Origin: Bdellovibrionota bacterium FG-2
GTDB taxonomy: Bacteria > Bdellovibrionota > UBA1018
Length of the DNA: 36,660 bases
Assembly (NCBI GenBank): GCA_051382305.1
Contig: JBBCAV010000133.1
Span: 1-36,660 of the forward strand
Direction of reading: 5' to 3'
Positions 3,210-20,442 of the stretch are shown here, piece by piece. The position numbers and the translations under genes were made by a program. How positions within the stretch are numbered: the first letter of the stretch is position 1; every line of letters starts with the position of its first letter. The notes beneath the pieces are model-generated. The model was not told where the DNA came from. It made no database searches and worked only from the letters and a program-made list of their open reading frames with translations.

Positions 3210-3480
3210 GGAGGCGCCATGCCCAAGGATGGGCAAAGATGGGCAAGCCGGGCACTCACGCAACTACCGCGACGCGTTGTAAAAATTACAATTCTTTTCA
3301 ACTTTCCTGAAACCGGCGAGAGCCTGAAAACATCAATAATTTCCATCAGATCAAAGAAGGTGCCGTCCCAAGAGAGGCACGTACACTATCTCTTCATGCT
3401 GCACGGTGTCGTTATGACAATAAAACATTCACAAATGAATTCATATACTTACATGCAAAATCGAGATCTCATTAATGTCC

Positions 3481-3499
3481 TTTTCAAGAAACTTGAAAA
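3481..3499. promoter_or_regulatory. perfect palindrome TTTTCAAG-AAA-CTTGAAAA, candidate enhancer-binding-protein site
   Basis: 8-bp perfect inverted repeat ~110 bp upstream of the sigma54 motif. A second TTTCA-N7-TGAAA copy lies at 3296-3312. Confidence 0.45.
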
Positions 3500-3606
3500 C
3501 ATCCCCCCTTCCCGGGGGTCCATCCTTCTGCTTCAACCGGACCTATAATCATTTTTCACCCATCATTTCAACCCCTTCCACGCCTTCGTAACGCAGATAC
3601 TCTCTT

Positions 3607-3622
3607 TGGCCCAAAGCTTGCT
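3607..3622 (+). promoter_or_regulatory. sigma54 (-24/-12) promoter of the YcaO operon
   Basis: TGGCCCAAAGCTTGCT = GG-N10-GC with TGGC and TTGCT consensus, 30 nt before an RBS-preceded ATG at 3652. Confidence 0.75.
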
Positions 3623-3651
3623 CTATGCCCCGCACGAAAGGGGGCTTCTAT

Positions 3652-4713
3652 ATGTTTGGGTCACTTCAAGATTTGTTCAGGTCGAATATGAATTCAAAAC
3701 AATACACCCCCTTTCTCGTTGGCGTACCCGTGATCTTGCCAACGGGAGAAAAACTCGTCCTTAAAATTTCCCCACCACAACCCATGAAGACGGAGGGCTT
3801 TCGCTTTTCAAAATTCTACTACTGCACCGAAATTCGCGGCGGAGGGTTTCACGAGGCGGGCTTTGGTGAAGCAGAGTTTCCACTTCTCGCGATTCAAAAA
3901 AGTATTTCCGAAGCCGTCGAGCGCATCCTCTTTAGAGCATTGAAGGGAACCACCCACGGAACCCCCAATTCAAACGGATGGGCGGCCCATGTAAACAAGG
4001 AGGCCGCGAAGAAAGCCGCGCTCTACGAATTGCTTGAGCGCGACGCCGTTCTTGTCCATTGGTTTTCCAAAACGCCTTTTTCCAGGATTCAGAATAACGA
4101 GTTGCCAAAATGGCTTCCGGCGTGGTCTGACCAAAATCTTAAAAAATCCGTATTCCCCGAAGTCCGCGTCCTAATTTCGCACGCCGGTCACGCTCCAACA
4201 GTTTCAACGCAGTTTTTGAACGCTGACGGCCATGGGGTCATCTCCCATGCGGCCGGGGACTCGCTAGAAAATGCGCTTGTACGGGCCTTTGCAGAGACGT
4301 GCCGATTAGCGAGGATGGCCGTGTCTCACCGCTACTATACCACTTCGAGACAACTTCTTGATTTTGAGACCCCGCTGACCACAAACCCCGTGGGACCCGC
4401 CGAACAGGCGGTCGCCTACGCACATCATTTCAGATTTCCTGCGTGGCTCTCTGACGAAACGATTCATTGGAAACAAGCGAAGGCGCAGTGGAATCGCCAT
4501 CTTCGTCAATTCACCAAAAACCCGATTCGTCACGAATTTAACGAGATTATCGCCTCCCCTCTGTCCGCCGGATATTGCACGAGTCCCGATGTGCAAAACC
4601 TGTTCTTTGGGAGGACAGAGGACGCGAAGCAGAAGAATATTTTAAACTTTGAGCGACTTGGTCGTTTGAAAACACTGGAAGCGATCAATCAACTTCCTCA
4701 TTTTGTAGCATGA
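3652..4713 (+). CDS. YcaO-family ATP-dependent peptide backbone-modifying enzyme
   Basis: YcaO ATP-binding motifs GFG...KSISEAVER and SNGWAAH...AALYELLERDA, plus RAFAE. C-terminus LPHFVA. Start moved to 3652 because it follows an RBS and lies downstream of the promoter. Confidence 0.88.
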   Translation: MFGSLQDLFRSNMNSKQYTPFLVGVPVILPTGEKLVLKISPPQPMKTEGFRFSKFYYCTEIRGGGFHEAGFGEAEFPLLAIQKSISEAVERILFRALKGTTHGTPNSNGWAAHVNKEAAKKAALYELLERDAVLVHWFSKTPFSRIQNNELPKWLPAWSDQNLKKSVFPEVRVLISHAGHAPTVSTQFLNADGHGVISHAAGDSLENALVRAFAETCRLARMAVSHRYYTTSRQLLDFETPLTTNPVGPAEQAVAYAHHFRFPAWLSDETIHWKQAKAQWNRHLRQFTKNPIRHEFNEIIASPLSAGYCTSPDVQNLFFGRTEDAKQKNILNFERLGRLKTLEAINQLPHFVA

Positions 4714-4734
4714 CGTAAAGTGGAGGTAATACTT

Positions 4735-5085
4735 ATGTCGATTATTAGAAATTCCATTGTAGTTATTCTAACCAGCCTTGGGCTTTTTTCGGCAAGCTCG
4801 CGAACCTTGGTTGCTTTTGCAGCCGAAGCGGAGCCCGCAAAAGCCGACACAAGATCTAACGGCGCTCAAGCAGCAATCGGTGACGAGGGACCCGGCACTC
4901 TATTAACCAGTGACGAGCAGGAGCACCTCAACGGGGAACTTGCAAAACTTCAGAGTGAATTCACGGCAGACGAGATCAATGCACTCATCTTCACCCTTCA
5001 AAACGGTAAAATTGATGTCCTTGGCAAGCGAGGCGAACTCATAAAGACCCTTAAAACTGGCTTAGACCACCCCACCTCGATTTGA
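4735..5085 (+). CDS. secreted 116-aa protein, candidate RiPP precursor / pro-peptide
   Basis: Strong RBS GGAGGT. Sec-type signal peptide (MSIIRNSIVVILTSLGLFS...AFA/AE). Directly downstream of YcaO. Precursor role is inference. Confidence 0.7.
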   Translation: MSIIRNSIVVILTSLGLFSASSRTLVAFAAEAEPAKADTRSNGAQAAIGDEGPGTLLTSDEQEHLNGELAKLQSEFTADEINALIFTLQNGKIDVLGKRGELIKTLKTGLDHPTSI

Positions 5086-5088
5086 TTT

Positions 5089-6594
5089 ATGAATCACGCA
5101 AAGGCATGGATAGTTATCGGAGTAGTTACTCTCGGAGGAATGATGGAAAACGTAAACGCAGCGACTAACGCCAAAAAACAGGAGCTTCGAACCTATCTTT
5201 CGTATTCGCTCCCCATTGATCCTGCCCGAGTAATCACCTTGACCGAGATGGACATGTCCTATGCGTTGGGCTCGACACTCGTTGAAATGGACGACAGCAA
5301 ACAGATCGTGGGCGGCTTATCCTCTCATTGGTCAATAATGGGAGATCGAACCTATCGCTTTCAACTCAGCGAAAAGGCAAAGTGGTCAGACGGTAGCAAA
5401 ATCACCTGCACGGACATCAAGAAAAGTTTCGCGCGCGCCAAACAAGATCACCAAGCGGATCTTCGGTCCCTTTTTGATCGCATAGGTTCAATCGAGTGTA
5501 TTGCTGAAAACCAAATTGATTTCCACCTCAAGGACGCCGAAAAAGACGGCTCTTTTCTCAAAAAACTTACCGAACCGATGTACGGCGTGGTCAAGACGGA
5601 TGCCAACGGGCATCTCGACCTTCGCCTAAGCAGTGGCCCCTTTTCGCTTCAGTCTCAAAGCACTCTGGAATTAACCCTGAAAAAGAACCCTCATTGGGTG
5701 CATCCTGCCGAGGAGTTGGCTGAATCCATCATCATAAAGCAGCCAAGCCGAGAGGCATCTCTTCAAGGAAAACTTCAAGACCCATGGCCAAACATCATCG
5801 CGGCGCACTCCCTTATGGAAGAGGAACTCTCGGCCCGCATTCAGGCACAAGGATTTCATACTTGGGCCAGAAATTTGGATCGCACCTTTTGGTTCATATT
5901 TATGGGAAAGAAACAGATCACCGAGGATGAACGCGGGCTGTTTCTATTTTTGTCTCAGAATTTAACTCGCCAAACGTTGATGACAAATCTCATGGCGAAC
6001 TTAAAGGGCTATACCGCTGGCCAAGAAGTGTTTCCGAGGGGCTACGCCCTCTACGGGGAAACTAAGCAGGAGCAAAGGGCTGCCGCCACCCTTCCCGAAA
6101 TTTATAAGAGCCGAAAACTCAAAATCCTGATCAGCCCGGACCGAGTTTCTAAAAAATTGCAGGACAATCTCTCGAAAGCCATTGAGCAGGCAACCGGCAA
6201 AGCTCCCGAGTATAAGGAGGTGCCAATCAGTGAAGTGTCTTCAACGGCAAAACAAGGGGGATTCGATTTTTATGTCGGATCAGTAGGTGTTGCTGATTCG
6301 AATCTGGATGGAGCCCTTTCGTATTTTCTAGAACTCAACCCCACGTCGATTCCCTCTGGAACGGGAGAACAAGACTACGCAGGCAGGCTTGGCCGGGCCA
6401 GATCCCTTGAATCAGAAGAAAAAAGAATTCGCGAATTTCGGGCCATAATGCTGGATGTGACCCGCAATGGTTATGCACTGCCCCTGTTTCATTTCTCCAC
6501 AACTGTTTTTGCTAGCCCCGATATCGATCTTTCGCAAATTCCGGTCACGGACGAGTCCGTGAGTTTTGCTAAGGTCAGGTTTTCGGGGAAATGA
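5089..6594 (+). CDS. family-5 extracellular solute-binding protein (OppA/DppA-like), no cognate permease nearby
   Basis: Signal peptide, IDPA..., and LSSHW..MGDRTYRFQLSEKAKWSDGSKIT..D, typical of SBP_bac_5. Confidence 0.88.
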   Translation: MNHAKAWIVIGVVTLGGMMENVNAATNAKKQELRTYLSYSLPIDPARVITLTEMDMSYALGSTLVEMDDSKQIVGGLSSHWSIMGDRTYRFQLSEKAKWSDGSKITCTDIKKSFARAKQDHQADLRSLFDRIGSIECIAENQIDFHLKDAEKDGSFLKKLTEPMYGVVKTDANGHLDLRLSSGPFSLQSQSTLELTLKKNPHWVHPAEELAESIIIKQPSREASLQGKLQDPWPNIIAAHSLMEEELSARIQAQGFHTWARNLDRTFWFIFMGKKQITEDERGLFLFLSQNLTRQTLMTNLMANLKGYTAGQEVFPRGYALYGETKQEQRAAATLPEIYKSRKLKILISPDRVSKKLQDNLSKAIEQATGKAPEYKEVPISEVSSTAKQGGFDFYVGSVGVADSNLDGALSYFLELNPTSIPSGTGEQDYAGRLGRARSLESEEKRIREFRAIMLDVTRNGYALPLFHFSTTVFASPDIDLSQIPVTDESVSFAKVRFSGK

Positions 6595-6619
6595 GATAGG
6601 ACAAACCCAAACAAAACCT

Positions 6620-8062
6620 ATGAAACGCCCTCAAAACTCATCACTCAAGCACTACCTCACGAAGCAGATCACGCGTTGGTCCGTGGTAGGCCTGTCGGTA
6701 AGCTTGGTGCTTGCCGGTGTTGCCGTCGTTTACTTCGGAATGCTGTCGAGTATTGATCATTTACAATCCGTGTCTAAGGCCGCAGTCAAAGCATTTCGCC
6801 CGGCGCTCATTTCAACCAACAACGTGAAAGAAGTCGAGTTACAGATCAAGGACGCGTTTCAACTGAAACCTGGCGAATCGATTTTGATTCGAGATCCTGA
6901 TCTAAAACCATTTTACACATTGGGCAAAGGGGCAAAATCCCACCAAGAAGAGCCCACGTGTTCTGCGGACTCGCAAAAAGTGTGCTGGAATCTCAAGAAG
7001 AACCGCATCAGCACCCTGGTACCCATCTACTATGATCCCAGAACGCAGGAAATATATGGCTACCTTGAGGCTAATCTTGAACCGACCCTGAACCTCAAAC
7101 TTTTATCCGTCCTATTTATCTTGATCAGTGCCGGCTTCATGATTCAGTCCTTCGGCCTTTTGATAAAATTGGCCCGAATTACGGATACCGTAGGCGAAAG
7201 GCTCTCGGCCTGGGCAAATCACATCAAGAGTGACCCAAAAATGAAAATCACGGTGACAAATCTTCCCTTCTCTGATCTAAAGCCGATGCAAGAGGCGCTG
7301 GAGGGTCTCCGCGTTGAAATTGAGAAATTTGAAAGTGCCGCCAAAATTGGAGGTCAATTGACCGTCATTCGCGGCATCGCTCACGACATTCTATCCCCCG
7401 TTTCTCAACTGGATCGTCTGATTGCAACCTTGGGACTTCTGATTAAGAAGGAACAGCCAATCACGCCAGATCTCATGAACGAAATCAATCGCTCCTTAGC
7501 CAAAATATCCGACATTGCCAAGCAGGTTAAGGCGCTAAAGAGTGGAAGCTCAAACATGCCTGGTGAAACGGGCCTACCGATTCCTCCCGCTCACTGCAAT
7601 TTGTCTTCAGAACTTGCGACACTCATTCATGATCTCGAAAGATATGATGGCGAGCTCAAAGGCCACAAAATAAAACTCAACATCCAAACACAAGGTCCGC
7701 TCATGGCGGGGGTGTCGTCGAGTGACTGCCAGAGAATTATTGAAAATTTGATTCGAAATGCTGCCCACGCCTCTCGCACGGGCAGTACAATCAACGTCGA
7801 TCTTGCAGCGAATGAAGGAGGCCCTTTCGTGAGCGTTCGCGATGAGGGTTCCGGAGTTTCAGACGAAATTCGAGAGAAGATTTTCAATGTAGATTTCACC
7901 ACGAAGGCTGGGCGAGGTACGGGGCTTGGACTTCCGACGGTGCAATATCTTTGTGATAAAAATGGAGCCAAGATCGACTTCTCAAGCCACGTGGGCCATG
8001 GCTCAGAATTTAGCGTCCTTTTTAGACCGACTAACCCAGCCGATACAGGAGAACACCTATGA
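6620..8062 (+). CDS. membrane-bound sensor histidine kinase
   Basis: Two TM segments flank a periplasmic domain. H-box IAHDILSPV, N-box ENLIRNA, G1 DEGSGV, F-box IFNVDFTTK, G2 GTGLGL. ATG at 6620 preferred over TTG at 6566. Confidence 0.93.
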   Translation: MKRPQNSSLKHYLTKQITRWSVVGLSVSLVLAGVAVVYFGMLSSIDHLQSVSKAAVKAFRPALISTNNVKEVELQIKDAFQLKPGESILIRDPDLKPFYTLGKGAKSHQEEPTCSADSQKVCWNLKKNRISTLVPIYYDPRTQEIYGYLEANLEPTLNLKLLSVLFILISAGFMIQSFGLLIKLARITDTVGERLSAWANHIKSDPKMKITVTNLPFSDLKPMQEALEGLRVEIEKFESAAKIGGQLTVIRGIAHDILSPVSQLDRLIATLGLLIKKEQPITPDLMNEINRSLAKISDIAKQVKALKSGSSNMPGETGLPIPPAHCNLSSELATLIHDLERYDGELKGHKIKLNIQTQGPLMAGVSSSDCQRIIENLIRNAAHASRTGSTINVDLAANEGGPFVSVRDEGSGVSDEIREKIFNVDFTTKAGRGTGLGLPTVQYLCDKNGAKIDFSSHVGHGSEFSVLFRPTNPADTGEHL

Positions 8063-9423
8063 GTTACCGAATCTTGATCATTGATGATGACAAAGCCAAC
8101 ATCACTTCCACCAAGCTCTATTTGGAAGCGCAAGGTTATCGTGTAGATGGCGCGACGTCCGGAAAATCCGCGCTTGAAATGCTTCATAAGAACAACAGCC
8201 GGTACGCCCTCATTTTGATGGACTACTTCATGCCTGAGCTAAATGGAATTGAAACGGCTAAAGCGGTTTTGGCTCTTAATCCCGACCAGCTCATCACGAT
8301 GTACTCTTGTGACGACGCCAAGGATCTTGTTAAAGAAGCCATGCGCGTCGGCATCTCCGACTACATCGAAAAGGATCTCCCTTCTGAAAAGCTTTTAGAG
8401 CGCATCCAAGGGTTGTGTGAAAAGTATGAGCGCACGACAAAGCTAATTGAAGTAGCGCCGGTCGCCCCCGAAGAGAGCAAAAAGATCCTTGGGCTGATTG
8501 GCACTTCTCGCGTGATGGCTCAAGTGAAATCGACCATTGGAAAGTACGCAGCAGAGAATCAAACTGTGCTCATTACCGGAGAGACGGGCACGGGCAAAGA
8601 AGTCGTGGCGAAAGCCATTCATCAATTAAGCCCGCGCGCTAATAACTCCTTCATCGGACTCAATTGCGCCGCTATTCCGGAAAACCTGCTCGAATCCACC
8701 CTATTTGGTCATGAAAAAGGGTCATTCACGGGGGCGATTAGGAGTCAGGTTGGGAAATTTGTTTTGGCAAACCACGGCACTCTATTTTTGGACGAAATCG
8801 GAGACCTATCCCTTGATCTTCAAGTTAAACTTTTGCGAGTGCTTCAAGAGCGCATGGTTGAACCTGTCGGATCAAATGTGCCGGTCAAAGTGGATGTTCG
8901 AATCATCACAGCCACCCACAAAAATCTTGAGCAGCTTGTCAAAGAAGGAAAGTTTCGTGAGGATCTTTACTACCGTCTCAACGTCCTCACGATGGACATC
9001 CCGCCCCTGCGGCAAAGAAAAGAGGATATTGAACCGCTGATTGCGCATTTTACCGAGATGTCTAATCGCGAAAGAGGTGTTGAGATGGGCTTTGAGCGAA
9101 GCACCCTTTCAATTTTGACTGAATACCCATGGCCCGGAAACGTTAGGGAGTTGCGCCACGCGGTCGAGTCTCACCTCATTCGTTGCCCCGGAAAAACAGT
9201 GAAGACAGAACATCTGGACAGTAAGTTTGATAAAAAAGAAAAAGTCCAGACCCTTAAAGGTTTTGGTGAAAAACAACGGGCCGAGCTAAAACGGTTTATC
9301 GAATCCCATCTCAAAACTGCCAAAACTTCAAAGACCACCCAATCCGAGGCCGCTAGAAAAATGGGAATTACCCCCAGCAAGTTGCACTATTACTTGGATG
9401 CTTATGGTATCGTTCCGGAGTGA
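8059..9423 (+). CDS. sigma54-dependent response regulator (NtrC/AtoC family; REC-AAA+-HTH)
   Basis: REC (IIDDD, MDYFMP), Walker A GETGTGKE, GSFTGA loop, Walker B LFLDEIG, FREDLYYRL, WPGNVREL, C-terminal Fis-type HTH. ATGA overlap with the kinase. Confidence 0.96.
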   Translation: MSYRILIIDDDKANITSTKLYLEAQGYRVDGATSGKSALEMLHKNNSRYALILMDYFMPELNGIETAKAVLALNPDQLITMYSCDDAKDLVKEAMRVGISDYIEKDLPSEKLLERIQGLCEKYERTTKLIEVAPVAPEESKKILGLIGTSRVMAQVKSTIGKYAAENQTVLITGETGTGKEVVAKAIHQLSPRANNSFIGLNCAAIPENLLESTLFGHEKGSFTGAIRSQVGKFVLANHGTLFLDEIGDLSLDLQVKLLRVLQERMVEPVGSNVPVKVDVRIITATHKNLEQLVKEGKFREDLYYRLNVLTMDIPPLRQRKEDIEPLIAHFTEMSNRERGVEMGFERSTLSILTEYPWPGNVRELRHAVESHLIRCPGKTVKTEHLDSKFDKKEKVQTLKGFGEKQRAELKRFIESHLKTAKTSKTTQSEAARKMGITPSKLHYYLDAYGIVPE

Positions 9424-10193
9424 ATACGGAAACGCTTGAGCTTCTCTTTAATCGGACTTCGGTAAGGGACTTTTTGAACAAGGTAGTTCCTGATGAAGTC
9501 TTGTCGAAAATCCTTGAGATGGGCACGAGGGCTCCTTCGGGCGGAAACCTCCAGAGCTATGGCATCATTGTCACTCAAGATCCGGATCGAAGGAAGGCTC
9601 TAGGGGAGATTCACTTCGGACAACCGATGTTTCTGACCGCCCCCGTGATTTTGACTTTTTGTGTTGATGTTGAACGCAATTCCCGTTGGTGCAAGCTTCG
9701 TGGCGCCAACGCTGGGTTTGATAATCTCTGGGGGTTTTTACTGGGTATGGCTGACGCCTGGAGCGCTGCTCAGAACGTCGTCGTCGCCGCTGAATCCTTG
9801 GAACTCGGGTCATGCCACTCGGGCGCCACTTTTGTTCGAACATTGAGCCTCATTGATTTTTTTGGCTGCCCACGGGGGGTACTCCCAGTTGCGACACTCG
9901 TCCTGGGTTATCCTTCGAAGCGCACCGCACGTCGGGGCCGGCTCCCTCAACAAAGTGTAGTGCATGAGGAGACTTATCATCAGGCTAGCGACGACGTCCT
10001 TTTAGCGGCTTACCAAGCGCAAGAGGATGAAGGTTTTCGCTACTATGAAGGGCTCTACGAAAGAGTCGGAAAGAGCCAAGGCAAGATCGACCAGCTCGCA
10101 AAGATTTACACAGAGATCAAATACCGCGGCGAAGAGACATCACTTTTTTCGGAAAACTTCACAGCGGCTCTAAAAAAGCAGGGGTTTATTTGA
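9420..10193 (+). CDS. FMN-dependent nitroreductase-family oxidoreductase (NfsA/FRP-like)
   Basis: RTSVRDF, APSGGNLQ, AAQNVVVAAESLELGSC, LVLGYP, RLP..VVHEETY. GTGA overlap with the regulator stop codon. Confidence 0.9.
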   Translation: MNTETLELLFNRTSVRDFLNKVVPDEVLSKILEMGTRAPSGGNLQSYGIIVTQDPDRRKALGEIHFGQPMFLTAPVILTFCVDVERNSRWCKLRGANAGFDNLWGFLLGMADAWSAAQNVVVAAESLELGSCHSGATFVRTLSLIDFFGCPRGVLPVATLVLGYPSKRTARRGRLPQQSVVHEETYHQASDDVLLAAYQAQEDEGFRYYEGLYERVGKSQGKIDQLAKIYTEIKYRGEETSLFSENFTAALKKQGFI

Positions 10194-10199: not shown

Positions 10200-13100
10200 T
10201 TAATGACCCCGCTGCGCGTGCATTGACGGAGTAGGAATCTGGGCGCCTTCTTTCATCTCAAACTTCCACTTCCAAATGTGAAAAATAACCGGGTACACCA
10301 CAAGCTCCAGGATAAAACTCGTAACTAGCCCACCAACCATCGGAGCCGCAATTCTTCGCATCACATCGCTTCCGGCCCCTGATGACCACATGATGGGGAG
10401 CAAGCCCATGAACGCCGCCATTACCGTCATCATCTTGGGCCTAATTCGTCTAACAGCCCCATGCAAAATCGCCTCATCCAGGTCTGCTTTCGTTCTCATT
10501 GTTCCGGCTCGCACATGATCTTCATAAGCAATATCCAGATAAAGGAGCATAAAGACGCCTGTCTCAGCATCAAGCCCCATGAGGGCAATCATGCCTACCC
10601 AAACTGCAATGGAAATGTTGTAACCCAAAAGAAACAAAAGCCAAACACTGCCGACAAGTGAAAAGGGGACCGCCAAAAGAACAATTGCAGTTTTTACAGT
10701 CGATTTTGTATTCATGTAAAGAAGGAAAGCGATGATAAAAAGTGTGAGAGGGATAACGATTTTTAAGCGCTCTTTCACCCGGATCATGTTTTCATACTGC
10801 CCACTCCACACCAGTGTGTAGCCCGTCGGAACCTTCACTTTCTCTTCGACGATTTTCTTGGCTTCCTGAACATAACCCCCCACGTCCCGGCCCGCCATAT
10901 CCACATACACGTAACCTGCGAGTAACCCATTCTCGTTTCGCACCATCGCGGGGCCTTCGACCATTCGAATATCGGCAATCTGGGTAATCGGAATATGCGC
11001 ACCAGTAGGAGACGGAACTAAAACTCGTTTCAAGGAATTAATATCATCACGAAACTCTCGTGCGTAACGAACATTGATGGGATAGCGCTCGCGACCTTCA
11101 ACCGTATAACTGATGTTTTCTCCGCCGACCGCCGTATTGACGACCATTTGAGCATCGGCTACCGAGATCCCGTAACGGGCTAGTTCGTCGCGGTTTAAGA
11201 CAAAATCAAGATAGTAACCGCCAGCAGCTCTCTCCGCATAAACATTTCGCGTCCCGCTAACAGGGCGAAGCGCAAGTTCAATTTGCTCCCCGATGGCTTG
11301 AATTGTTTTAAGATCCTTGCCCATTACTTTTATCCCAATAGGGGTTCGGATTCCGGTTGAAAGCATGTCGATTCTATTTTTAATCGGCATTGTCCAGACA
11401 TTGGGGATTCCTGCAAACCGTAATTTGCTATTCATGTCATTTTGTAACTCTTCAAAGGTGCGATGAGCGGGAACAATCCACGAAAAGAGAGGATACATAA
11501 AATGGGGGAGCCGGGAATACCAACGATCGACTTCCGGCCACTCCGAAAGTGGCTTGAGAACCACCGTGGTTTCCACCATCGAAAAAGGCGCCGGATCTGT
11601 GGGCGTATCCGCTCGGCCCGCTTTCCCAAATACCGTGTCCACTTCCGGAAAGTCCTTAATAAGTTTGTCTTGAACTTGAAGAATACGCTTCGCTTCGGTG
11701 ACCGACATCCCTGGAAAAGCGGTGGGCATATAAAGGAAAGCGCCCTCATTCAAAGGCGGCATAAATTCAGAGCCCAGTTTCAAATACACCGGGATCGTTG
11801 TGAGCATCACAAGCAATGCACCGAGCAAAGTCGCCGTACTATGCTTTAATACAAATTTCACAACTGGCTCATAAATGCGGAACAAAACGACGCTTATCGG
11901 ATGCTTCTCCTCTGGATAGTATTTCCCGACTAATGTTTGGTTTCCAACCCAAACGACGCCATTTCGAATTCTCTCCAAAACAGAGCCTCTTCTTCTAGAG
12001 AGCGGAACGTAGCGAAAGTAATCCATCCTTGTAAACATCATACGAAGCGCGGGATCAACTGTGACTGCTAACAACGAGGCCAAACCCATAGCCAACGTTT
12101 TTGAAAAGGCCAGCGGCTTAAAAAGCCTTCCTTCTTGATCAACGAGCGTAAAAACGGGAAGAAATGAAACTGCGATCACTAAAAGTGAGAAGAATACTGA
12201 AGGCCCCACCTGCTTCAAGGCATTCAAACGAACAAGGTGAAAATCACCTTTCCGGCCAGACGAATCCCACTCCTCCAACTTCTTATAAGCATTTTCAACT
12301 TCGACAATCGCACCATCAACCAAAACGCCGATGGAAATCGCAATACCCGCGAGCGACATGATGTTGGTCGTAAGGCCCATGAAGTACATCGGGATAAAGG
12401 CGAGAAAAACAGAAATAGGAATCGTAAGAATCGGCACTGTCGCGGACGGAATATGCCAGAGGAAAAGCAGAATCACGAGGCTTACGATAATCACCTCGAC
12501 CTTTAGCTCATGTTTAAGCGTATCGATTGCCCGCGTAATTAAATCCGATCGATCATAGACGGGAACAATTTTAACCCCAGGAGGAAGGCTGGGTTTGAGT
12601 TCTTCAAGTCGAGCTTTTACAGCGTTAATTATGTTTAGGGCATTTTCACCCTGTCGCATTATCGCGACTCCACCGACCGTATCTCCCATGCCGTTAAAAT
12701 CAGTCACACCACGACGCATGTCAGGTCCAAGCTCGACACGTCCTAGGTGCTTTACAAGTATGGGGACGCCGGTTTTTGAGTCCGTTGTTACAACAATATT
12801 CTCAATATCCTCCTTATTTTTTACGTAACCACGCCCTCGGACCATGTATTCGGTTCCAGAGAATTCAAGAACCCGTCCGCCGGTATCGGTATTGCCTGAA
12901 CGAACTGCATTCACAACCTGCGCGATCGTCATTCCATAGGCGATGAGTTTATTGGGATCAATGTTGATTTGGTATTGTTTCACAAAACCGCCAACAGCTG
13001 CCACTTCGGCAACTCCGGGGACAGCTTGAAGGTGAAACTTTAGTTGCCAATCTTGAATACTGCGCAATTCTGACAAATTGAGCTGATTAGACTCATCAAT

Positions 13101-13529
13101 CAAAGCGTATTGGTAGACCCATCCCACGCTCGTGGCATCTGGACCAATCTCAGTTTTTACTTCAGCAGGTAATCGAGGCAAGATCTTGCTCAGGTATTCT
13201 AGGACACGAGATCTAGCCCAATAGAGGTCTGTCCCATCCTCAAAAATCACGTAGACATAAGAAAAGCCAAAATCAGATAATCCTCTCACTGCCTTGATCT
13301 TGGGGGCACCCAGAAGCGCCGTCACGATCGGATAGGTCACTTGATCTTCAAGAATATCCGGGGATCGATCCCACTTGGAGTAAATTATGACCTGAGTATC
13401 TGAGAGATCTGGGATCGCATCTAGTGGAATTGTCTTAAGGCACACGGATGCGCTGATGATTGCAACGCCTGTCAAAATAAAAACGAGCAGTTTATTATGA
13501 GCGCTCCATTCAATAATTCTCTCGACCAT
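10200..13529 (-). CDS. cusA: heavy-metal efflux RND permease, CusA/SilA type
   Basis: LDAIPDLSDTQV. Met sites GSEFMP, DPAPFSM, RIDMLSTG. VDGAIVEVEN and RIRPKMMT. Confidence 0.93.
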   Translation of the reverse strand: MVERIIEWSAHNKLLVFILTGVAIISASVCLKTIPLDAIPDLSDTQVIIYSKWDRSPDILEDQVTYPIVTALLGAPKIKAVRGLSDFGFSYVYVIFEDGTDLYWARSRVLEYLSKILPRLPAEVKTEIGPDATSVGWVYQYALIDESNQLNLSELRSIQDWQLKFHLQAVPGVAEVAAVGGFVKQYQINIDPNKLIAYGMTIAQVVNAVRSGNTDTGGRVLEFSGTEYMVRGRGYVKNKEDIENIVVTTDSKTGVPILVKHLGRVELGPDMRRGVTDFNGMGDTVGGVAIMRQGENALNIINAVKARLEELKPSLPPGVKIVPVYDRSDLITRAIDTLKHELKVEVIIVSLVILLFLWHIPSATVPILTIPISVFLAFIPMYFMGLTTNIMSLAGIAISIGVLVDGAIVEVENAYKKLEEWDSSGRKGDFHLVRLNALKQVGPSVFFSLLVIAVSFLPVFTLVDQEGRLFKPLAFSKTLAMGLASLLAVTVDPALRMMFTRMDYFRYVPLSRRRGSVLERIRNGVVWVGNQTLVGKYYPEEKHPISVVLFRIYEPVVKFVLKHSTATLLGALLVMLTTIPVYLKLGSEFMPPLNEGAFLYMPTAFPGMSVTEAKRILQVQDKLIKDFPEVDTVFGKAGRADTPTDPAPFSMVETTVVLKPLSEWPEVDRWYSRLPHFMYPLFSWIVPAHRTFEELQNDMNSKLRFAGIPNVWTMPIKNRIDMLSTGIRTPIGIKVMGKDLKTIQAIGEQIELALRPVSGTRNVYAERAAGGYYLDFVLNRDELARYGISVADAQMVVNTAVGGENISYTVEGRERYPINVRYAREFRDDINSLKRVLVPSPTGAHIPITQIADIRMVEGPAMVRNENGLLAGYVYVDMAGRDVGGYVQEAKKIVEEKVKVPTGYTLVWSGQYENMIRVKERLKIVIPLTLFIIAFLLYMNTKSTVKTAIVLLAVPFSLVGSVWLLFLLGYNISIAVWVGMIALMGLDAETGVFMLLYLDIAYEDHVRAGTMRTKADLDEAILHGAVRRIRPKMMTVMAAFMGLLPIMWSSGAGSDVMRRIAAPMVGGLVTSFILELVVYPVIFHIWKWKFEMKEGAQIPTPSMHAQRGH

Positions 13530-13531
13530 GG

Positions 13532-14827
13532 CTATTTACCTCCGCCCGAACTTCCGTGAACATGCGAAGGCGGTGGCGATGAATTAGGTGGCGCTTGAGG
13601 CGCGCTTTCCAAGACTCCTCGAAGTTTGGACTCGGAATCAATCAAGAAGTTTGCTGAAGTCACGATGGTGTCACCCTCATTTAGTCCAGAAAGTACTTCG
13701 TAATAACTTTGTGACTTTAACCCTGTCTGAATGGCGTGTGGCTCAAATCGCCCCTGATCCTTCACTACATATACAAAGGCCTTCTCACCTGAGAAAAGAA
13801 CAGCATTCTCAGGGACCGCAAGCTTTTCACCTAGATCAACCTTGATCTTTACATTCATAAAGGTATCCGGGCGCAGGAGGCCCTGGGGATCTGGAACCGA
13901 GGCTCTCACTCGAACCGTACGAGTCGGGGAATTGACCACGGGGTTGATGCTGGAGAGTTTGCCCATAAACACCTTGCCCGGAATCGATGGTGCTTCGACC
14001 TCAATTTTCAAGCCGGCCTTCAAGCCAGCGACTTCATACTCGAAAACTTCGGCGTAAACCCATACGGTCCCTTTTGGCAAAAGCAGATTCATGGCACTCG
14101 TTTTTCCTGTGCTCAATGTACGAATCTGGTCATCAGAAAGCCCCATTAACTTAAGTTTCGTTTTAGCGGAGCTGATCATCTCGTTAGCCTGCCCCTGCAT
14201 GAGATCATCCTTCATTTGGACTCTGGACATGAAGGCCTGCCGATACTCCTCTACTGCGGTAAAGAGATCAGGATCAAATGCAACTCTTCCACTTGCGCGC
14301 ACCTCATAGCCCAAGGGCCGGACGCTGACCTTAGCCGTCGTCACTCCGATCATCTGTTGTCTTTCCTGAGATAACGAAAAAGATCCTCTGCCTTGGATGC
14401 CTTGTTGGCTCGATGAAGCTGAACCCACAGTTTCGCCTTCGTCTTGATAAACGGGGATATAGTCCATCCCCATTGAATCCTTTGCAGGAGTTGGGGAAGT
14501 TATTTCGGGTTTCATAGGATTGCGGTAAAGAATGATTTTTCGTTCCTTTTTCACAACCGAGGTGGTTTCCCCTGTAACGGGGCTTGGATTAGAATGTGGC
14601 TCTTCGTTCTCGACCTTCTCAAGGTTCATGTGGCAAATGGGACAAATGTCTGGCTTATCTGATGTCACTGCCGGATGCATGGAACAACGATAGAGATCTT
14701 TCTTGATTTGTTCTATTTCTGTTTTAGACACGCTGATCGTGTTGCCAGACTTTTTTGTACAGGCCGCCCAAAAAACAACGGGAGCAATAAAAAAAGCCCC
14801 GAAAAGAAGTAATTTAAATTTATTCAT
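13532..14827 (-). CDS. cusB: CusB-like membrane fusion protein with heavy-metal-binding domains
   Basis: YRCSMHP...CPICHMNL and YRNPM..KDSMGMDYIPVY motifs, plus an MFP C-terminus (SANFLIDSES). Confidence 0.9.
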   Translation of the reverse strand: MNKFKLLLFGAFFIAPVVFWAACTKKSGNTISVSKTEIEQIKKDLYRCSMHPAVTSDKPDICPICHMNLEKVENEEPHSNPSPVTGETTSVVKKERKIILYRNPMKPEITSPTPAKDSMGMDYIPVYQDEGETVGSASSSQQGIQGRGSFSLSQERQQMIGVTTAKVSVRPLGYEVRASGRVAFDPDLFTAVEEYRQAFMSRVQMKDDLMQGQANEMISSAKTKLKLMGLSDDQIRTLSTGKTSAMNLLLPKGTVWVYAEVFEYEVAGLKAGLKIEVEAPSIPGKVFMGKLSSINPVVNSPTRTVRVRASVPDPQGLLRPDTFMNVKIKVDLGEKLAVPENAVLFSGEKAFVYVVKDQGRFEPHAIQTGLKSQSYYEVLSGLNEGDTIVTSANFLIDSESKLRGVLESAPQAPPNSSPPPSHVHGSSGGGK

Positions 14828-16146
14828 GGCTTTGCTCCTAGCGATTCTCCAATGAGTGCTTCAAATTCAGCTATCCTTGATTGATAACTGACCAGTGCTT
14901 CATTGTAGGCAAATTCAATTTGAAATCTATTGCGAATGAGGTTCACGACAGCAACATACTCTAATTTTCCAGTAAGATAAGAGGATTTTGCCGAAAGCAC
15001 AGCTTGCCTTGCCAGAGGAACCAGTCCCCCATCATATAGACGCATACGCTTGTCAGACTCCTCTAGGTCCGCATACATGGTCTTTACTTGATGATTAAGA
15101 TGAAGCCGTTCTTCGTCCAAAAGTTTTTCAGACCTCACCTTTTCAGCCGAAGCACTTCGGACCTCTTCAGATTGTTTGGAAAATGCCCAGAGCGGAATCG
15201 AAAGAGAGACCCCGCCGGAAATCAAATCAACCCCCCGATCACCCGGACTAGGCTGACGCTTCATATAGGCAACTCGAAACTCAAAATCTGGAAGACAGTT
15301 CCACTTCGCAAAAGAAAGTTTAGAATCAGATGCCGCTAACTCTGATTGCATCGCTCTTAGACTTGGATTCTTGATATGCATCTTCTCTAGAAGTGACTCC
15401 TCACTTAGTACCGAAAAATCAAATGACGGCTTGGGCGGAAGTTCAGGTCGCCCAAGAGCAGTTTCGCTCGGCCGCCCGACTGCTTGATTCAAATCTGCAG
15501 CTTTTACGCGGATTTTCTTCTCCGCCGTTAATAGCTCATCTCTCAAATTGCCTTCTTCTAACTGAAGGGCAAGGAGTTCTGCCTGTTGCGCTTTCCCAAG
15601 CGTATACTTGCTTCGAGTAATACTAATTAACTGCCCCATGAGAGAGACTTGCTCCGTTACGATATCCTTTTTTTTATAGGCTAGAAAAAGCTCGAAATAT
15701 GCAACCCGCACTTCTTTGATCAGTTCTAACTTCTTCTGACTGTAGCCCGCTGACTTTGCCGTATATTCATGTCGAGCAGCATTTCGAAGTTTGCTCAGTT
15801 TTCCTGGAAAAGGTATTTTCTGAGTAATCGAAAACTCGTTTCCAGTCATCCCAAGCTCTCCCGGCGATAAAGTGTCGCTAGGATAATTGAGTGCTGAATA
15901 TCCCAACATCGGGTCATCGTAGGATCCCCTTGGCCCAATCTCTGCTTCTTTGGCAATGGCTTCGTACTTTACCGCCTCTAGGGCCGGACGATTCTTGAGA
16001 GCTTCTTCGATCAGATTTTGAAGTGTTTCTTGGGATTCCTCTTGTGCCTTTGCAGCATGAGATCCGAATGCGACACACCCTACGGCAAATATCACCAAGG
16101 TGGCGGTAAACATTCTAATCCATTTAAGTTTCAGTCTCGTTCTCAT
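14824..16146 (-). CDS. TolC-family outer membrane factor (CusC-like)
   Basis: Signal peptide, QKIPFPGK motif, OMF helical pattern. First gene of the C-B-A operon. Confidence 0.9.
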   Translation of the reverse strand: MRTRLKLKWIRMFTATLVIFAVGCVAFGSHAAKAQEESQETLQNLIEEALKNRPALEAVKYEAIAKEAEIGPRGSYDDPMLGYSALNYPSDTLSPGELGMTGNEFSITQKIPFPGKLSKLRNAARHEYTAKSAGYSQKKLELIKEVRVAYFELFLAYKKKDIVTEQVSLMGQLISITRSKYTLGKAQQAELLALQLEEGNLRDELLTAEKKIRVKAADLNQAVGRPSETALGRPELPPKPSFDFSVLSEESLLEKMHIKNPSLRAMQSELAASDSKLSFAKWNCLPDFEFRVAYMKRQPSPGDRGVDLISGGVSLSIPLWAFSKQSEEVRSASAEKVRSEKLLDEERLHLNHQVKTMYADLEESDKRMRLYDGGLVPLARQAVLSAKSSYLTGKLEYVAVVNLIRNRFQIEFAYNEALVSYQSRIAEFEALIGESLGAKP

Positions 16147-16187
16147 GAATAACCTTTTGTTGCGCGTACATATTTATTTCAAAAGGG

Positions 16188-16216
16188 AATACGTGGCCGT
16201 ACGATGATTTGTGACA
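16188..16216 (-). promoter_or_regulatory. ECF-type promoter for the first cusCBA operon
   Basis: Minus strand TGTCACA-AATCATCGTACGGCCA-CGTATT (16-nt spacer). Confidence 0.8.
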
Positions 16217-16380
16217 CACACCTATTTTTTTACTCCTAATTCAGCACACGGCCCATGGCCCGTCCACACGGCACACTGCGTTCAGCTTGTTGGTCTACAT
16301 TTAAGCTTAACCTCTTCGACTTGTGAATTACAGTGGTTTCATATAGATACACTAGATCAGTAACGAATATTAAACCGCGC

Positions 16381-16409
16381 TGTCACAACTGGATCTTCCC
16401 GAGCGTATT
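16381..16409 (+). promoter_or_regulatory. ECF-type autoregulatory promoter of the sigma operon
   Basis: TGTCACA-ACTGGATCTTCCCGAG-CGTATT (16-nt spacer). Confidence 0.8.
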
Positions 16410-16468
16410 AGAAAGTGAAGGAAGGCGAAGGTAGTCGGTCGACAGCAAATAAGGGGCCGGCACTGGCA

Positions 16469-17011
16469 ATGAATACAAATGAGCAAGAGAGTGATGAAAA
16501 GCTTATGAGTGCGTATCAACTGGGCGATGTTCTCGCTTTTGAAACGCTCTACAAACGGCACTCAGGCAAAATCTATGGGTATCTCCAAGCAAGGATCAGG
16601 GATCGTGGGGTAGTGGACGACCTGTTTCAGGCGACCTTTCTAAATCTCCATCGTGCACGGTCCAAGTATAATGCCGCTCTTCCATTTCTGCCTTGGCTCT
16701 TTGCGGTTTGTAGGAATGCACTTTTGGATTATACGCGCCGGAATAAGAGGTCTCTTGAACGTTCGGATTCCGATGCGGTAGATTCAGCTATTGATGAAAG
16801 GATGACTCAAATAGAATCGGGGTTACCCGAAGAAGCTGAATCGCTCCCCTTGGATCAACGCCAGGCGCTCGAAATGAGGTTTCGCGACGAACTTGCTTTT
16901 AAGGACATCGCCAAACACCTTGATACTTCGCCAGCCAATGCGCGGCAACTCGTGAGTCGTGCCGTACGAAAACTTCAATTTCTCATGAACATGAATGGGA
17001 GGGTGAAATGA
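16469..17011 (+). CDS. ECF RNA polymerase sigma factor
   Basis: Region 2 (SDEKLM...AFETLYKRH...DDLFQATFL...WLFAVCRN..LD) and region 4 (LPLDQRQAL...FKDIAKHL..SPANARQLVSRA). ATG at 16469 preferred. Confidence 0.93.
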   Translation: MNTNEQESDEKLMSAYQLGDVLAFETLYKRHSGKIYGYLQARIRDRGVVDDLFQATFLNLHRARSKYNAALPFLPWLFAVCRNALLDYTRRNKRSLERSDSDAVDSAIDERMTQIESGLPEEAESLPLDQRQALEMRFRDELAFKDIAKHLDTSPANARQLVSRAVRKLQFLMNMNGRVK

Positions 17012-17571
17012 AAAAAGAATCTTCCGTGCAATGGGCGCAGGAATTTCAGAGTTTTGTGGCAGGAGAAGAAGTTTTACCTCCAGCGAATATTTCTGAAAAT
17101 ATTTTAAGTCAAATTCATCGGGATCTCAATCCAGCTGCATGGCGTGTATTCTCGAAGCTTGCGTTTATTCATCTCATGGTCGGATCTGTGACGATTCTCT
17201 TTTGTCCTCAGTTTGGAATTAACCTAATGGGTGGCATGGGTTTGATGTCGTTGTTTATGCGATATGGCGCTCAGGTGTGCATGGTGGCTTGTGGGGCTGT
17301 GTTTATGGGCGGCAGCGCCCTGGCCGGTGCGATTTTCCTTCGACCGGAGGAGGTCAGGGTTATTCGAAGAACACGGTTTTTACAAATCTCTGCGCTTACC
17401 TTGCTTTCGATGGGGGTATTTGTGTGTGCAGGAGCGGTACTTATCTTCAGCCTAGCATCGTTTTGGCTCGTTGGATCAGTTTTGGGAGGCCTCGTGAGCC
17501 TAGAGTTCGGCTGGATTTTGCGGATGGGAGTGGGACGAACACTAGCCATGATCGGCGCGAGGGAAAGATAA
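17008..17571 (+). CDS. multi-TM membrane protein, probable anti-sigma factor
   Basis: ATGA-coupled to the ECF gene. Short soluble N-terminus followed by about four hydrophobic segments. Cys in FCPQFG and VCMVACG. Confidence 0.7.
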   Translation: MKKESSVQWAQEFQSFVAGEEVLPPANISENILSQIHRDLNPAAWRVFSKLAFIHLMVGSVTILFCPQFGINLMGGMGLMSLFMRYGAQVCMVACGAVFMGGSALAGAIFLRPEEVRVIRRTRFLQISALTLLSMGVFVCAGAVLIFSLASFWLVGSVLGGLVSLEFGWILRMGVGRTLAMIGARER

Positions 17572-17581
17572 GGAGGAAAAG

Positions 17582-18166
17582 GTGAAAGGTTGGCTGTACG
17601 ATTGGGAAATGAAGGCGTCCGAATTATTGTCCCTTCGTAGGCTTCGTCGGCGGATCATTCCGCACGCAGCGGGCAGAACCCTGGAAATTGCTTTGGGAAC
17701 TGGCGCGAACATACCTTATTATCGTAATCAAACCGCTCTAACAGGGTTGGAACCGGACCCACAAATGTCCTTACGGGCTCAAGGGCGATTACTAGAGATG
17801 GGGCGTGAGGCGAAGCTTGTTAAGGGCATCGCAGAGCATATGCCATTTGAGAATCAGGCTTTTGACACCGTTGTCGCAACATTCGCCTTTTGTACGATAT
17901 CGAATCCTCAAGCTGCTGCCTTCGAAATTTGTCGTGTCCTTAAGCAGGGCGGATTGCTAATTCTTGCAGAGCACGGACCAAAGGGGCAAGTCTCTTCAGC
18001 TATTTTCAGTCTTCTTGCACCGATGTGGAAAAAAATTGCCGGAGGCTGTCACCTGGATAGGCGTCTGAGTGAGTGGTTCAACTTTTCCGCTTATGCTGAA
18101 CTCATGCATGGCACCTTTTGGTTTGGGTTTGGAGAGTATTGGATTTTGAGGAAACGCGAAGGGTGA
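17582..18166 (+). CDS. class I SAM-dependent methyltransferase
   Basis: LEIALGTGAN motif I, AEHMPFENQAFDTVV, GGCHLDR. Confidence 0.9.
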   Translation: MKGWLYDWEMKASELLSLRRLRRRIIPHAAGRTLEIALGTGANIPYYRNQTALTGLEPDPQMSLRAQGRLLEMGREAKLVKGIAEHMPFENQAFDTVVATFAFCTISNPQAAAFEICRVLKQGGLLILAEHGPKGQVSSAIFSLLAPMWKKIAGGCHLDRRLSEWFNFSAYAELMHGTFWFGFGEYWILRKREG

Positions 18167-18665
18167 AAGAAAAATATATGCTACTATTTATCCGGTTGGT
18201 TACTGTTTGTCTAATAATGAGTGCTGATGTCGATTGGAACTGATTGGGATGCTAGCACTCCTCCGCGATGAGAAGAAGCAGCAGGGCATTTCCCTACTCA
18301 CAATCCTCGGGATCCCAACGGGGGCAGTTCCCGCCGGACACCATGGTTTGGGTTATCTGTTAGGCATTACTGGACGGATGGTTCACAGAAATATCTTCAC
18401 ATGGGATGGTATTTTACATTATGATTTTAATGCAAAACATCTTCTTCCCGAAAGCGGATTTGTGATCAAGACCTGGGAGTCTCTTTTTGCCACGCTGGAT
18501 TTGCGAGCAACTCTAAAGAGCAAATCAGCTGCGGCAATTCTGCCCGGAGTTAAGTACGCTGCAACCCCTTCATTATTCGTCGGCGTTGGTTATCAGGAAT
18601 CTTTCGGCGCAGCCTCGACGTTTGACCGTCAGTTCTATTTACAGGTCGAGTTTGGTCGTCACTGA
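18163..18665 (+). pseudogene. probable disrupted outer-membrane beta-barrel gene
   Basis: A GTGA-coupled signal-peptide-like frame (18163-18243) stops early. A different frame (18234-18665) encodes beta-strand-like text ending FYLQVEFGRH, without its own signal peptide. Confidence 0.45.
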
Positions 18666-18696
18666 CGGACACAGCCTTGGCAAAAAGATTGAGATT

Positions 18697-18724
18697 TGTC
18701 ACAAACTGACTCCGAGATTCGTAT
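18697..18724 (+). promoter_or_regulatory. ECF-type promoter
   Basis: TGTCACA-AACTGACTCCGAGATT-CGTAT (16-nt spacer). Confidence 0.8.
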
Positions 18725-18748
18725 CCTTTGAAAAAGGAGATTCTTTAT

Positions 18749-19294: not shown

Positions 19295-19337
19295 AGTACG
19301 AACTTAGTCTTCGGACACACCGATCCTTGCGCTGATA

Positions 19338-19691: not shown

Positions 19692-19803
19692 GTGATGTTC
19701 CAGTTCGGTTCGGGGCGAGGTAACTCATTAATGCCTTTAAAAATGTAAATTATATGGGCAGACTCCGTTAGTAACTTCAACCCACGTATTTTTGGAGACC
19801 CAT

Positions 19804-20142: not shown

Positions 20143-20155
20143 AAACGCGCTAGTT

Positions 20156-20398: not shown

Positions 20399-20425
20399 AG
20401 TCTCATCCCTCTTACCCCTATTTAG

Positions 20426-20442
20426 AGCAAGCATAGTGCCAA
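20426..20442 (-). promoter_or_regulatory. sigma54 (-24/-12) promoter
   Basis: Minus strand TTGGCACTATGCTTGCT, a near-perfect TGGCAC-N5-TTGC match, 28 nt upstream of ATG 20398. Confidence 0.8.

Follow-up and report, generated by a model that had tools for sequence, protein, structure and literature searches.

A 36,660-nt stretch of the genome of Bdellovibrionota bacterium FG-2 (contig JBBCAV010000133.1, positions 1 to 36,660; contig C133, hereafter the window) carries at positions 3625–10193 a cluster of genes for a YcaO enzyme, a small precursor-like protein, a family-5 solute-binding protein (SBP), a histidine kinase, a sigma54-dependent regulator and a flavoenzyme. Comparison with related loci indicated that this is almost certainly a real conserved module, and its gene content and promoter point to a real autoregulated peptide circuit that is apparently undescribed. 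An earlier note on this DNA, made from the letters alone, had proposed a signalling system based on a peptide synthesized ribosomally and modified post-translationally (RiPP), and that interpretation was partly supported. When the whole chain from enzyme to promoter is taken together, the reading of the locus as a signalling cassette that regulates itself and centers on a ribosomal peptide is judged to be evenly poised between right and wrong.

The six genes were located on the same strand by means of the ORF list and family scans. The first encodes a mini-YcaO of 353 amino acid residues (3652–4713, + strand, in a frame open from 3625; Pfam YcaO 42.3 bits against a cut-off of 25.7, E 7.7e-11). 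It is followed by the gene of a family-less precursor-like protein of 116 residues (4735–5085, +; GGAGG 8 nt 5′ of the ATG), that of an SBP_bac_5 protein with a signal peptide (5089–6594, +; 65.6 bits, E 5.8e-18) and that of a membrane histidine kinase (likely 6620–8062, within the ORF 6566–8062, +; HATPase_c 63.4 bits, E 3.3e-17). The last two encode an NtrC-type sigma54 enhancer-binding regulator with receiver (REC), sigma54-AAA+ and C-terminal helix-turn-helix (HTH) domains (8059–9423, +; Sigma54_activat 241 bits, 5.9e-72; Response_reg 2.9e-22) and an NfsA-like nitroreductase-family flavoenzyme (9420–10193, +; nitroreductase family 66.4 bits; PRK10765 104.9 bits against a cut-off of 223). 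The genes are spaced by 21, 3 and 25 nt and then by two 4-nt overlaps, and they are preceded by a sigma54-type −24/−12 box, TGGCCCAAAGCTTGCT (3607–3622, +), with the canonical GG-N10-GC spacing. The claim that six co-oriented genes, with gaps of 25 nt or less or overlaps, stand behind one sigma54 promoter was therefore borne out by the ORFs, the spacings and the box. According to a simple scan, neither sigma70-like promoters (5 against 6.1 expected) nor terminators (8 against 10.9 expected) were in excess inside the cluster. Since the box lies only 2 nt 5′ of the first ATG of the ycaO frame (3625), whereas the ATG at 3652 is preceded by GGGGG and the ycaO homologues start at this same point, translation of ycaO probably begins at ATG 3652.

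To survey the gene neighborhood, 42 loci (the window itself, 19 loci from GTDB species genomes, 9 from a phylum survey and 13 from metagenomes) were searched by tblastn with the window proteins. The genes of YcaO, SBP, kinase and regulator were found in the same order and orientation in 26 of the 42 loci and, in a further five, in order up to the end of the contig; in seven, the contig stops within 570 nt after ycaO. The order was thus kept in 31 of 35 assessable loci, as the earlier note would have it. The four exceptions were a locus with a truncated SBP gene and neither kinase nor regulator (L031), a lone ycaO fragment (L034), a locus without a regulator match (L086) and one with another gene order (L087). 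The loci come from metagenome-assembled genomes of Oligoflexia, Bdellovibrionia and Bacteriovoracia, spanning several families of the phylum, and among 401 evenly sampled genomes of the phylum, 30 from many families gave a match at E <= 1e-20. Chance juxtaposition of the genes was rejected because the module is conserved in this way. The flanks of 18 loci showed no further conserved gene. Some genomes hold two or three modules with different peptides. The window genome itself has two more distant sets of mini-YcaO, small signal-peptide ORF and SBP, at C307:16763–19714 and C271:112–3112, with the peptide tails DGTSTCRSVRGG and DGSSTCFSHG, respectively. Decayed copies were also seen: a frameshifted SBP gene in L020 (1653–3102), the truncated SBP gene of L031 (1663–2664), where kinase and regulator are gone and an integrase lies 7.7 kb downstream, and the lone ycaO fragment of L034 (10001–10489).

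The proposal of a six-gene system stood for its first five genes, which are conserved in order elsewhere, and not for the flavoenzyme. By tblastn, a nitroreductase homolog was detected in 3 of the 42 loci only, namely the window, L020 (58% identity, after the regulator) and L086 (a weak match of 29%, after the kinase), and a methyltransferase takes its place in L021. The window nitroreductase gene is translationally coupled to that of the regulator; its product gave no match to the SagB model of NCBIfam and matched PRK10765 (NfsA) instead. On this distribution, the nitroreductase is a lineage-specific accessory outside the conserved core.

The first gene product was placed in the YcaO superfamily by its PF02624 match, above the gathering score, and by its modeled fold. 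The AlphaFold2 (AF2) model of the window YcaO reached a pLDDT of 95.2, and all 41 Foldseek matches in the PDB at E <= 0.001 were YcaO-type enzymes with TM values of 0.5–0.6; the minimal methanogen enzymes 6peu and 6ci7 came at the top (E 1.7e-9 to 1e-8), followed by E. coli YcaO, LynD, McbD, MusD and TruD. By sequence, the clade is remote from all solved YcaOs, its best profile matches being MusD (E 0.002) and TruD (0.007). A word-indexed search returned 58 mini-YcaO homologs of 275–402 residues, all with PF02624, for which the only name given was "YcaO-like family protein", from Bdellovibrionota and Bacteriovorax records. In a full profile search of 1.84 billion representatives, 105 proteins reached E <= 1e-30 and 861 reached E <= 1e-10, so that the wider group is sizeable. 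Among 57 aligned homologs, E87, E90, R91, G109, W110, H113, E126, E129, R130, D131, E215 and P263 were invariant. E87, E90 and R91, together with E126, E129, R130 and D131, fall in the motifs S-x-x-E-x-x-ER and E-L-x-ERD, which the clade shares with MusD and TruD, and the invariant acidic residues may be the equivalents of the ATP/Mg2+ ligands of E. coli YcaO. Judged from alignment and model, the active site of the window enzyme, a stand-alone mini-YcaO, looks intact. Assignment to a TfuA-type thioamide pathway was rejected, given that TfuA (PF07812) was found in none of five genomes (G000, 85% complete; G001, G019, G034 and G032, 93–98%), with a positive Methanosarcina control.

In every locus extending past ycaO, the gap after this gene contains a small ORF, and these ORFs are homologous and occupy the same position. 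They comprise 19 distinct short forms of 47–60 residues and 12 distinct long forms of 94–118 residues, the latter including the window protein. All 19 short forms begin with M-S-x-[FIL]-K, followed by a hydrophobic stretch of 12–15 residues and by S-G-[SG]-x-[RK]-x-L-x-x-x-A; the middle part is a variable Gly/Ser/His-rich stretch, and the C-terminal motif can be summarized as G-x-[ST]-C/G. More precisely, the tails carry [ST]-C in 11 forms, T-G-C in one, [ST]-G in five and SSG or TSVGG in two, after which 0–4 residues follow. All 12 long forms have an added helix plus beta-sheet domain and end in P-[ST]-[CST] with 1–8 further residues (HPTSI in the window; elsewhere EPSCW, NPTCW, QPTCW, EPSCV, QPSCV, NPSCY, APSCV, APSSI and NPTTT); in their alignment, a hairpin Gly and the tail Pro were the only invariant residues. 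In many tails, a His adjoins the Ser/Thr-Cys site. The window protein consists of a signal-peptide-like leader, a disordered linker, a helix plus beta-sheet domain and a flexible tail ending in GLDHPTSI. By inspection, the N-terminus of the small ORFs resembles a Sec signal peptide. For the window protein, the AF2 model was weak (mean pLDDT 49, with residues 56–110 reaching ~65–70); its helix and three strands fall at residues 59–107, and the linker and the five C-terminal residues are modeled as disordered. The window ORF matched no family of Pfam or NCBIfam. An NCBIfam scan of 10 precursors returned nothing at E <= 0.01 (L084 gave two chance-level matches, E 0.029 and 0.2), and an ESM Atlas look-up returned unrelated clusters only, with scores of <= 0.81.

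The pattern of a RiPP precursor, that is, a conserved leader, a hypervariable core, a conserved short site and a gene beside the enzyme gene, is therefore present, and the small ORF is regarded as precursor-like because its leader is conserved, its core is hypervariable, its site is of the Ser/Thr-Cys type and ycaO is adjacent. The alignments of leader, core and C-terminal motif thus upheld the earlier designation of the small ORF as a RiPP precursor. That YcaO and the small ORF form an enzyme–precursor pair is probable on these grounds.

The nearest solved relatives of the window SBP are MppA, the Vibrio chitin-oligosaccharide binding protein and OppA (E 1e-8 to 1e-3), and its best NCBIfam match was the nickel-binding Opp5A/NikA model (2e-12, far under the cut-off). 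The ABC permease family PF00528 has 14 matches in the genome, none of them on the window contig C133, so that the binding protein is an orphan here; no PF00528 permease was found on the paralog contigs C307 and C271 either. The junction between the SBP and kinase genes lies between −29 and +13 nt in 20 of 21 loci. Kinase and regulator genes overlap by 4 nt in 14 of the 21, the others showing larger apparent overlaps from over-extended ORF calls. The SBP gene is therefore coupled to a kinase gene instead of transporter genes, which is the arrangement of binding-protein-dependent kinases. The orphan binding protein beside a kinase, noticed before, was in this way confirmed by translational coupling and by the lack of transporter genes nearby. 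By sequence inspection, the kinase has two hydrophobic segments around a periplasmic stretch of ~120 residues, and the AAA+ domain of the regulator carries a GSFTGA loop, which we take to correspond to the GAFTGA loop of sigma54 enhancer-binding regulators. A complex prediction with the mature SBP (25–501) and the mature small protein (30–116), made with alignments and without controls, scored 0.00 against a mark of 0.32 and weighs neither way. One operon would thus hold the signal gene, the receptor, the regulator and a sigma54 box with upstream palindromes, an architecture resembling that of an autoinducing circuit.

The promoter was conserved together with the genes. A TGGC-N7-TTGC[TA] box on the coding strand, within ~220 nt 5′ of the ycaO match, was found in 17 of 18 loci and then in 16 of 17 further ones (33 of 35 in total). 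The spacer sequences vary among the loci, and therefore this conservation is not simple identity by descent. In the window, TGGC-N7-TTGCT occurs twice against 0.51 expected, a count reached in 8 of 100 shuffles and not significant alone; the weight of the window box accordingly comes from the related loci and not from the window statistics. Perfect or near-perfect palindromes, whose sequence depends on the lineage, are located 85–300 nt further 5′ of the promoter, and the earlier call of a sigma54 promoter held in view of both the conserved box and these enhancer-like palindromes. The class TTCAA-N5-TTGAA lies upstream of ycaO in the window and in L020, L036, L037, L084, L085 and L088, the latter six having 2–4 copies at this place. 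TGCGC[AG]-N6-[CT]GCGCA characterizes L026–L029, L031 and L033, CGACGAA-N2-TTCGTCG is found in L021 and L025, and L081 and L080 carry TTCAG...CTGAA and TGGACG...CGTCCA, respectively. The window has one strong palindrome before the promoter, TTTTCAAGAAACTTGAAAA (3481–3499), with perfect 8-nt arms ~125 nt 5′ of the −24 box. It is the sole TTCAA-N5-7-TTGAA site in 36.7 kb, is identical in the congener locus L019 and is a candidate enhancer (upstream activating sequence) for the NtrC-type regulator. A regex scan also gave an imperfect inverted repeat, TTTCA-N7-TGAAA (3296–3312), as a possible distal regulator site; its 5-nt arms are weak alone, and there were no others. A 109-residue ORF at 3219–3548 (+) was rejected as a gene and treated as probably non-coding, as it is frameshifted in the congener and overlaps these candidate enhancer sites.

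Within loci of 17–21 kb, the palindromes were almost confined to two places, namely 5′ of ycaO and 5′ of a gene for a zinc-ribbon or DksA/TraR-type zinc-finger protein. Second palindrome clusters were located in L020 (7177, 7253), L026 (15637–15659), L027 (9099, 9294) and L029 (7940, 8015). In L036, L085, L037, L088, L084 and L081, the zinc-ribbon/TraR-like gene is divergent from ycaO, and 3–6 palindromes fill the shared intergenic region. Because the operator class varies by lineage and matches within an element, a single DNA-binding protein most likely acts at both promoter regions, and the obvious candidate for binding both palindrome sets is the cassette's regulator with its HTH domain. 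The zinc-ribbon/TraR-like gene, which heads a type IV secretion system (T4SS) operon, is itself preceded at 10–70 nt by an element present once per locus. This reads TGGCAC-N15-TTGCA in 10 loci (L020, L022, L024, L025, L026, L028, L029, L030, L033 and L080), with N14 in L027, and TGGCA[CT]-N3/N4-TTGCA in L036, L037, L081–L085 and L088. It resembles a sigma54 box with the wrong spacing and can alternatively be read as a sigma70 promoter, TTGGCA / 17 / TGCAAT. In a scan of the loci, a canonical sigma54 box before a T4SS operon was found only in L029, on the divergent strand. This box, TGGCATTTATCTTGCT, in the L029 segment 8270–9414 (−), shares its palindrome array with the ycaO promoter; it is followed by two small ORFs of secreted appearance and then by the zinc-ribbon gene.

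Conjugation genes were the recurrent neighbors of the module in the relatives. In G034, the zinc-ribbon gene is followed by the gene of a 140-residue protein and then by those of a TrbC/VirB2-like pilin and of a TraL-like protein, whose matches are weak and fall below the Pfam cut-offs. After these come the genes for a TraC/VirB4 ATPase (TraG P-loop, 6e-42), for two proteins of unknown kind, and for TrbI/VirB10, an FtsK/SpoIIIE ATPase and a tyrosine integrase. At least two homologous T4SS genes flank 17 of the 42 loci. Twelve full modules have flanks of at least 5 kb on both sides, and 10 of these showed such a T4SS flank; of the remaining two, L080 has one weak match and L083 the zinc-ribbon gene only. 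The T4SS is either divergent from ycaO or downstream of the regulator. Two cassettes occur in G256, each beside its own T4SS, with the tails EPSCWTAPF and QPSCVGGL and with different palindromes.

In the window, a dense metal-resistance island lies downstream of the cassette (10200–29453). It contains a CusCBA-like resistance-nodulation-division (RND) system with an HMBD domain, an extracytoplasmic function (ECF) sigma factor, a methyltransferase, DUF3347, a second system of outer membrane factor, membrane fusion protein and RND pump, and a P-type ATPase. A near-duplicate cusCBA is present on contig C55, with 95% identity in CusA. Inside the island, a perfect sigma54 box, TGGCACTATGCTTGCT (20426–20441, −), is located 27 nt before an 80-residue ORF (20398–20156) with a signal-peptide-like start and the tail KPAHNH, which may encode another sigma54-driven small secreted protein.

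Taken together, the following mechanism is proposed. The mini-YcaO would use ATP to modify the backbone at the Ser/Thr-Cys/Ser dipeptide in the C-terminal tail of the small protein, the most likely product being an azoline ring. The small protein would be exported through its Sec-type signal peptide and then cleaved, and the orphan family-5 binding protein would bind its modified tail, either periplasmically or extracellularly. The loaded binding protein would dock on the histidine kinase encoded directly after it, and the kinase would phosphorylate the NtrC-type regulator. Bound to the lineage-specific palindromes ~100–300 nt upstream, the regulator would fire the sigma54 promoter of its own operon and so close a positive feedback loop. 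In most relatives, the circuit would most likely couple DNA transfer to an element-specific peptide signal, because the same palindromes precede the zinc-ribbon/TraR-like gene that opens the T4SS operon. In the lineage of the window, the cassette appears detached from conjugation genes, with the extra nitroreductase and among metal-efflux genes. Sensing of the peptide by its own receptor may or may not hold, with the weight on neither side, and the control of transfer genes in the relatives is put at the same middle strength. More tentatively, and with somewhat less probability than these two steps, integrative and conjugative elements of Bdellovibrionota may each carry a private pheromone system, consisting of a YcaO-tailored Sec-exported peptide, a matching SBP and kinase, and a regulator with its operator, which decides when the transfer apparatus is built; the window would then hold a domesticated or stranded copy that controls itself and a flavoenzyme beside metal-resistance cargo.

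Several observations weigh against this mechanism. A single chemistry is not obvious, because the window precursor has no Cys and five short forms have Gly where others have Cys. The enzyme scored 44.6 bits with the SagD-type model TIGR03604, far under the NCBIfam cut-off of 219.25, and no gene for an E1-like, Ocin-ThiF or leader-recognition (RRE) partner, of the sort on which most azoline-forming YcaOs depend, was found in the window operon by Pfam and NCBIfam scans. A PxPxP C-terminus is a feature of azoline-forming YcaOs, and no clear one is present here; the proteins end in LPHFVA or LPHIVP, with only P349 and H350 nearly invariant. Two loci, L028 and L086, lack a recognizable sigma54 box, and the related loci are non-independent samples. 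Moreover, the element before the zinc-ribbon gene is no canonical sigma54 promoter, which does not readily fit a sigma54 activator driving the transfer operon. As for the window, no integrase or conjugation families were found in the 23 other ORFs scanned, tblastn with the T4SS and integrase of a relative found none, and the 36.7-kb contig has no zinc-ribbon gene. In the congener L019, the 10 kb further upstream contain a cation diffusion facilitator (CDF) transporter and housekeeping genes and no T4SS, integrase or zinc-ribbon genes. Such genes occur elsewhere in the fragmented genome (C168, C212, C111, C263, C385 and others), and they could not be linked to the window contig C133. The location on an integrative element that the earlier note had suggested was hence not sustained for the window, where neither integrase nor T4SS was seen in 36.7 kb or in the 10 kb upstream in L019. 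Its suggestion that the module gates transfer genes gained support from the relatives, in which a T4SS/integrase cluster adjoins and a lineage palindrome is common to both promoter regions; an output on transfer genes cannot apply in the window, because there are no conjugation genes there.

The same operon could be that of a regulated RiPP effector, in which SBP, kinase and regulator sense an external cue (foreign peptides, cell-wall fragments, or recipient or prey cells) and the YcaO-modified secreted protein is the output, as an antimicrobial, an adhesin or mating factor, or an exclusion factor, and not the ligand of its own receptor. The operon architecture fits this explanation equally well; the SBP has its nearest solved relatives among proteins that bind murein peptide, chitin oligosaccharide and oligopeptides; precursors of the long form are folded small proteins, unlike short diffusible peptides; and a position beside pilus and secretion genes would suit a mating-related surface factor. 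However, in every locus the precursor gene lies inside the sensor operon, between the enzyme and receptor genes, and no immunity or dedicated export gene is present. Furthermore, tail, receptor and operator diversify together between elements, also within one genome, which is a hallmark of private signal–receptor pairs. An effector role is therefore considered rather unlikely, although it is the alternative given the most weight.

Two further explanations are both considered improbable, to a similar and greater degree. The window cassette has a CDF transporter on one side (as seen in the congener L019) and, on the other, two Cus-type RND systems together with a P-type ATPase and DUF3347. This position would suit a bufferin-like periplasmic metal peptide, whose Cys/His/Gly-rich tail chelates copper, nickel or zinc and whose complex is reported to the kinase by a NikA-like SBP. 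The match of the SBP to the nickel-binding Opp5A/NikA model (2e-12, far under the cut-off) and the His next to the Ser/Thr-Cys site in many tails agree with such a role, and bufferins are a precedent for Sec-exported metal-binding RiPPs. Nevertheless, the neighbor conserved across the family is the T4SS and not metal genes, which adjoin the module only in the genus of the window and, distantly, in L028; Cys is absent from the window tail and several others; and no metal-responsive regulator or promoter element was found. Alternatively, YcaO might act on another substrate (the binding protein, the kinase or a pilin) or have a non-RiPP role like that of E. coli YcaO, with the small protein as an unmodified sensor accessory. 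The pairing of enzyme and substrate rests on adjacency, no RRE domain or partner is present, and the small protein has a poor fold model (mean pLDDT 49), all of which is compatible with this explanation. It is countered by the small ORF always directly following ycaO, by its pattern of conserved leader and variable core, and by the C-terminal Ser/Thr-Cys-type dipeptide, a YcaO-type site, as its sole conserved core feature.

The proposed autoregulated peptide cassette was also compared with known systems. Like agr (AgrBDCA) and the nisin/subtilin loci (NisRK), it joins precursor, modifying enzyme, kinase and response regulator in one autoregulated operon and appears to form signal/receptor specificity groups; those systems differ in using AgrB or LanBC enzymes and a kinase that senses directly, whereas here YcaO, Sec export, SBP sensing and a sigma54 regulator would operate in the diderm Bdellovibrionota. 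The conjugation peptides of Firmicutes (pCF10 with cCF10/PrgZ/PrgX, ICEBs1 with RapI-PhrI, and pLS20) are alike in that a mobile element encodes a secreted peptide and a sensor for transfer, and PrgZ is an OppA-type family-5 binding protein. Those peptides are unmodified, imported and bound by cytoplasmic receptors, whereas extracytoplasmic two-component sensing of an enzyme-modified peptide would take place here. A conjugative element under peptide control is not known to us from diderm bacteria, and full-text literature searches found none. In LuxP/LuxQ, TorT/TorS, ChvE/VirA and CBP/ChiS, an SBP gene likewise stands beside a kinase gene and the SBP is the ligand-binding subunit; the Vibrio CBP (1zty) is an SBP_bac_5 protein too and is among the nearest solved relatives of the window SBP. 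The ligands in those systems are small metabolites or sugars made elsewhere, whereas the presumed ligand here is encoded and tailored in the operon; none of the binding-protein-dependent kinases listed in the passages of the review PMC8050422 considered here senses a ribosomal peptide. Bufferins are Sec-exported RiPPs with a protein-like fold and differ in their MNIO plus DUF2063 enzymes, copper buffering, control by an ECF sigma factor and lack of an SBP/kinase sensor. The methanogen McrA-thioglycine YcaOs (6peu, 6ci7) and the bottromycin YcaOs resemble the window enzyme in their length of ~350–400 residues and in having no fused E1-like domain; their substrate and genomic context are unrelated, and the sequence similarity of the window clade to such minimal stand-alone YcaOs is marginal (best E 0.002, MusD). 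The cassette is a member of none of the compared systems, and the memberships found are those in the YcaO superfamily and the family-5 binding proteins. Full-text literature searches returned no description of such a YcaO module (supplementary genome-mining tables of YcaO clusters were outside their scope).

Peptide quorum sensing is textbook knowledge for Gram-positive bacteria, and homoserine lactones are so for Gram-negative bacteria. If the proposed circuit is true, a tailored ribosomal peptide sensed through a periplasmic SBP and a sigma54 two-component system would break this division of signals. It would be the first peptide cell–cell signal controlling conjugation in diderms and the first signalling role for YcaO chemistry, and a second enzyme class would join the very new group of Sec-exported RiPPs. 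The co-varying tails, receptors and operators would represent a natural set of orthogonal signal–receptor–promoter triples, and the compactness of the cassette, with five genes behind one promoter, makes reconstitution in a laboratory host realistic. Moreover, through the link to the T4SS, the question of how conjugative elements time their transfer becomes testable in a new phylum.

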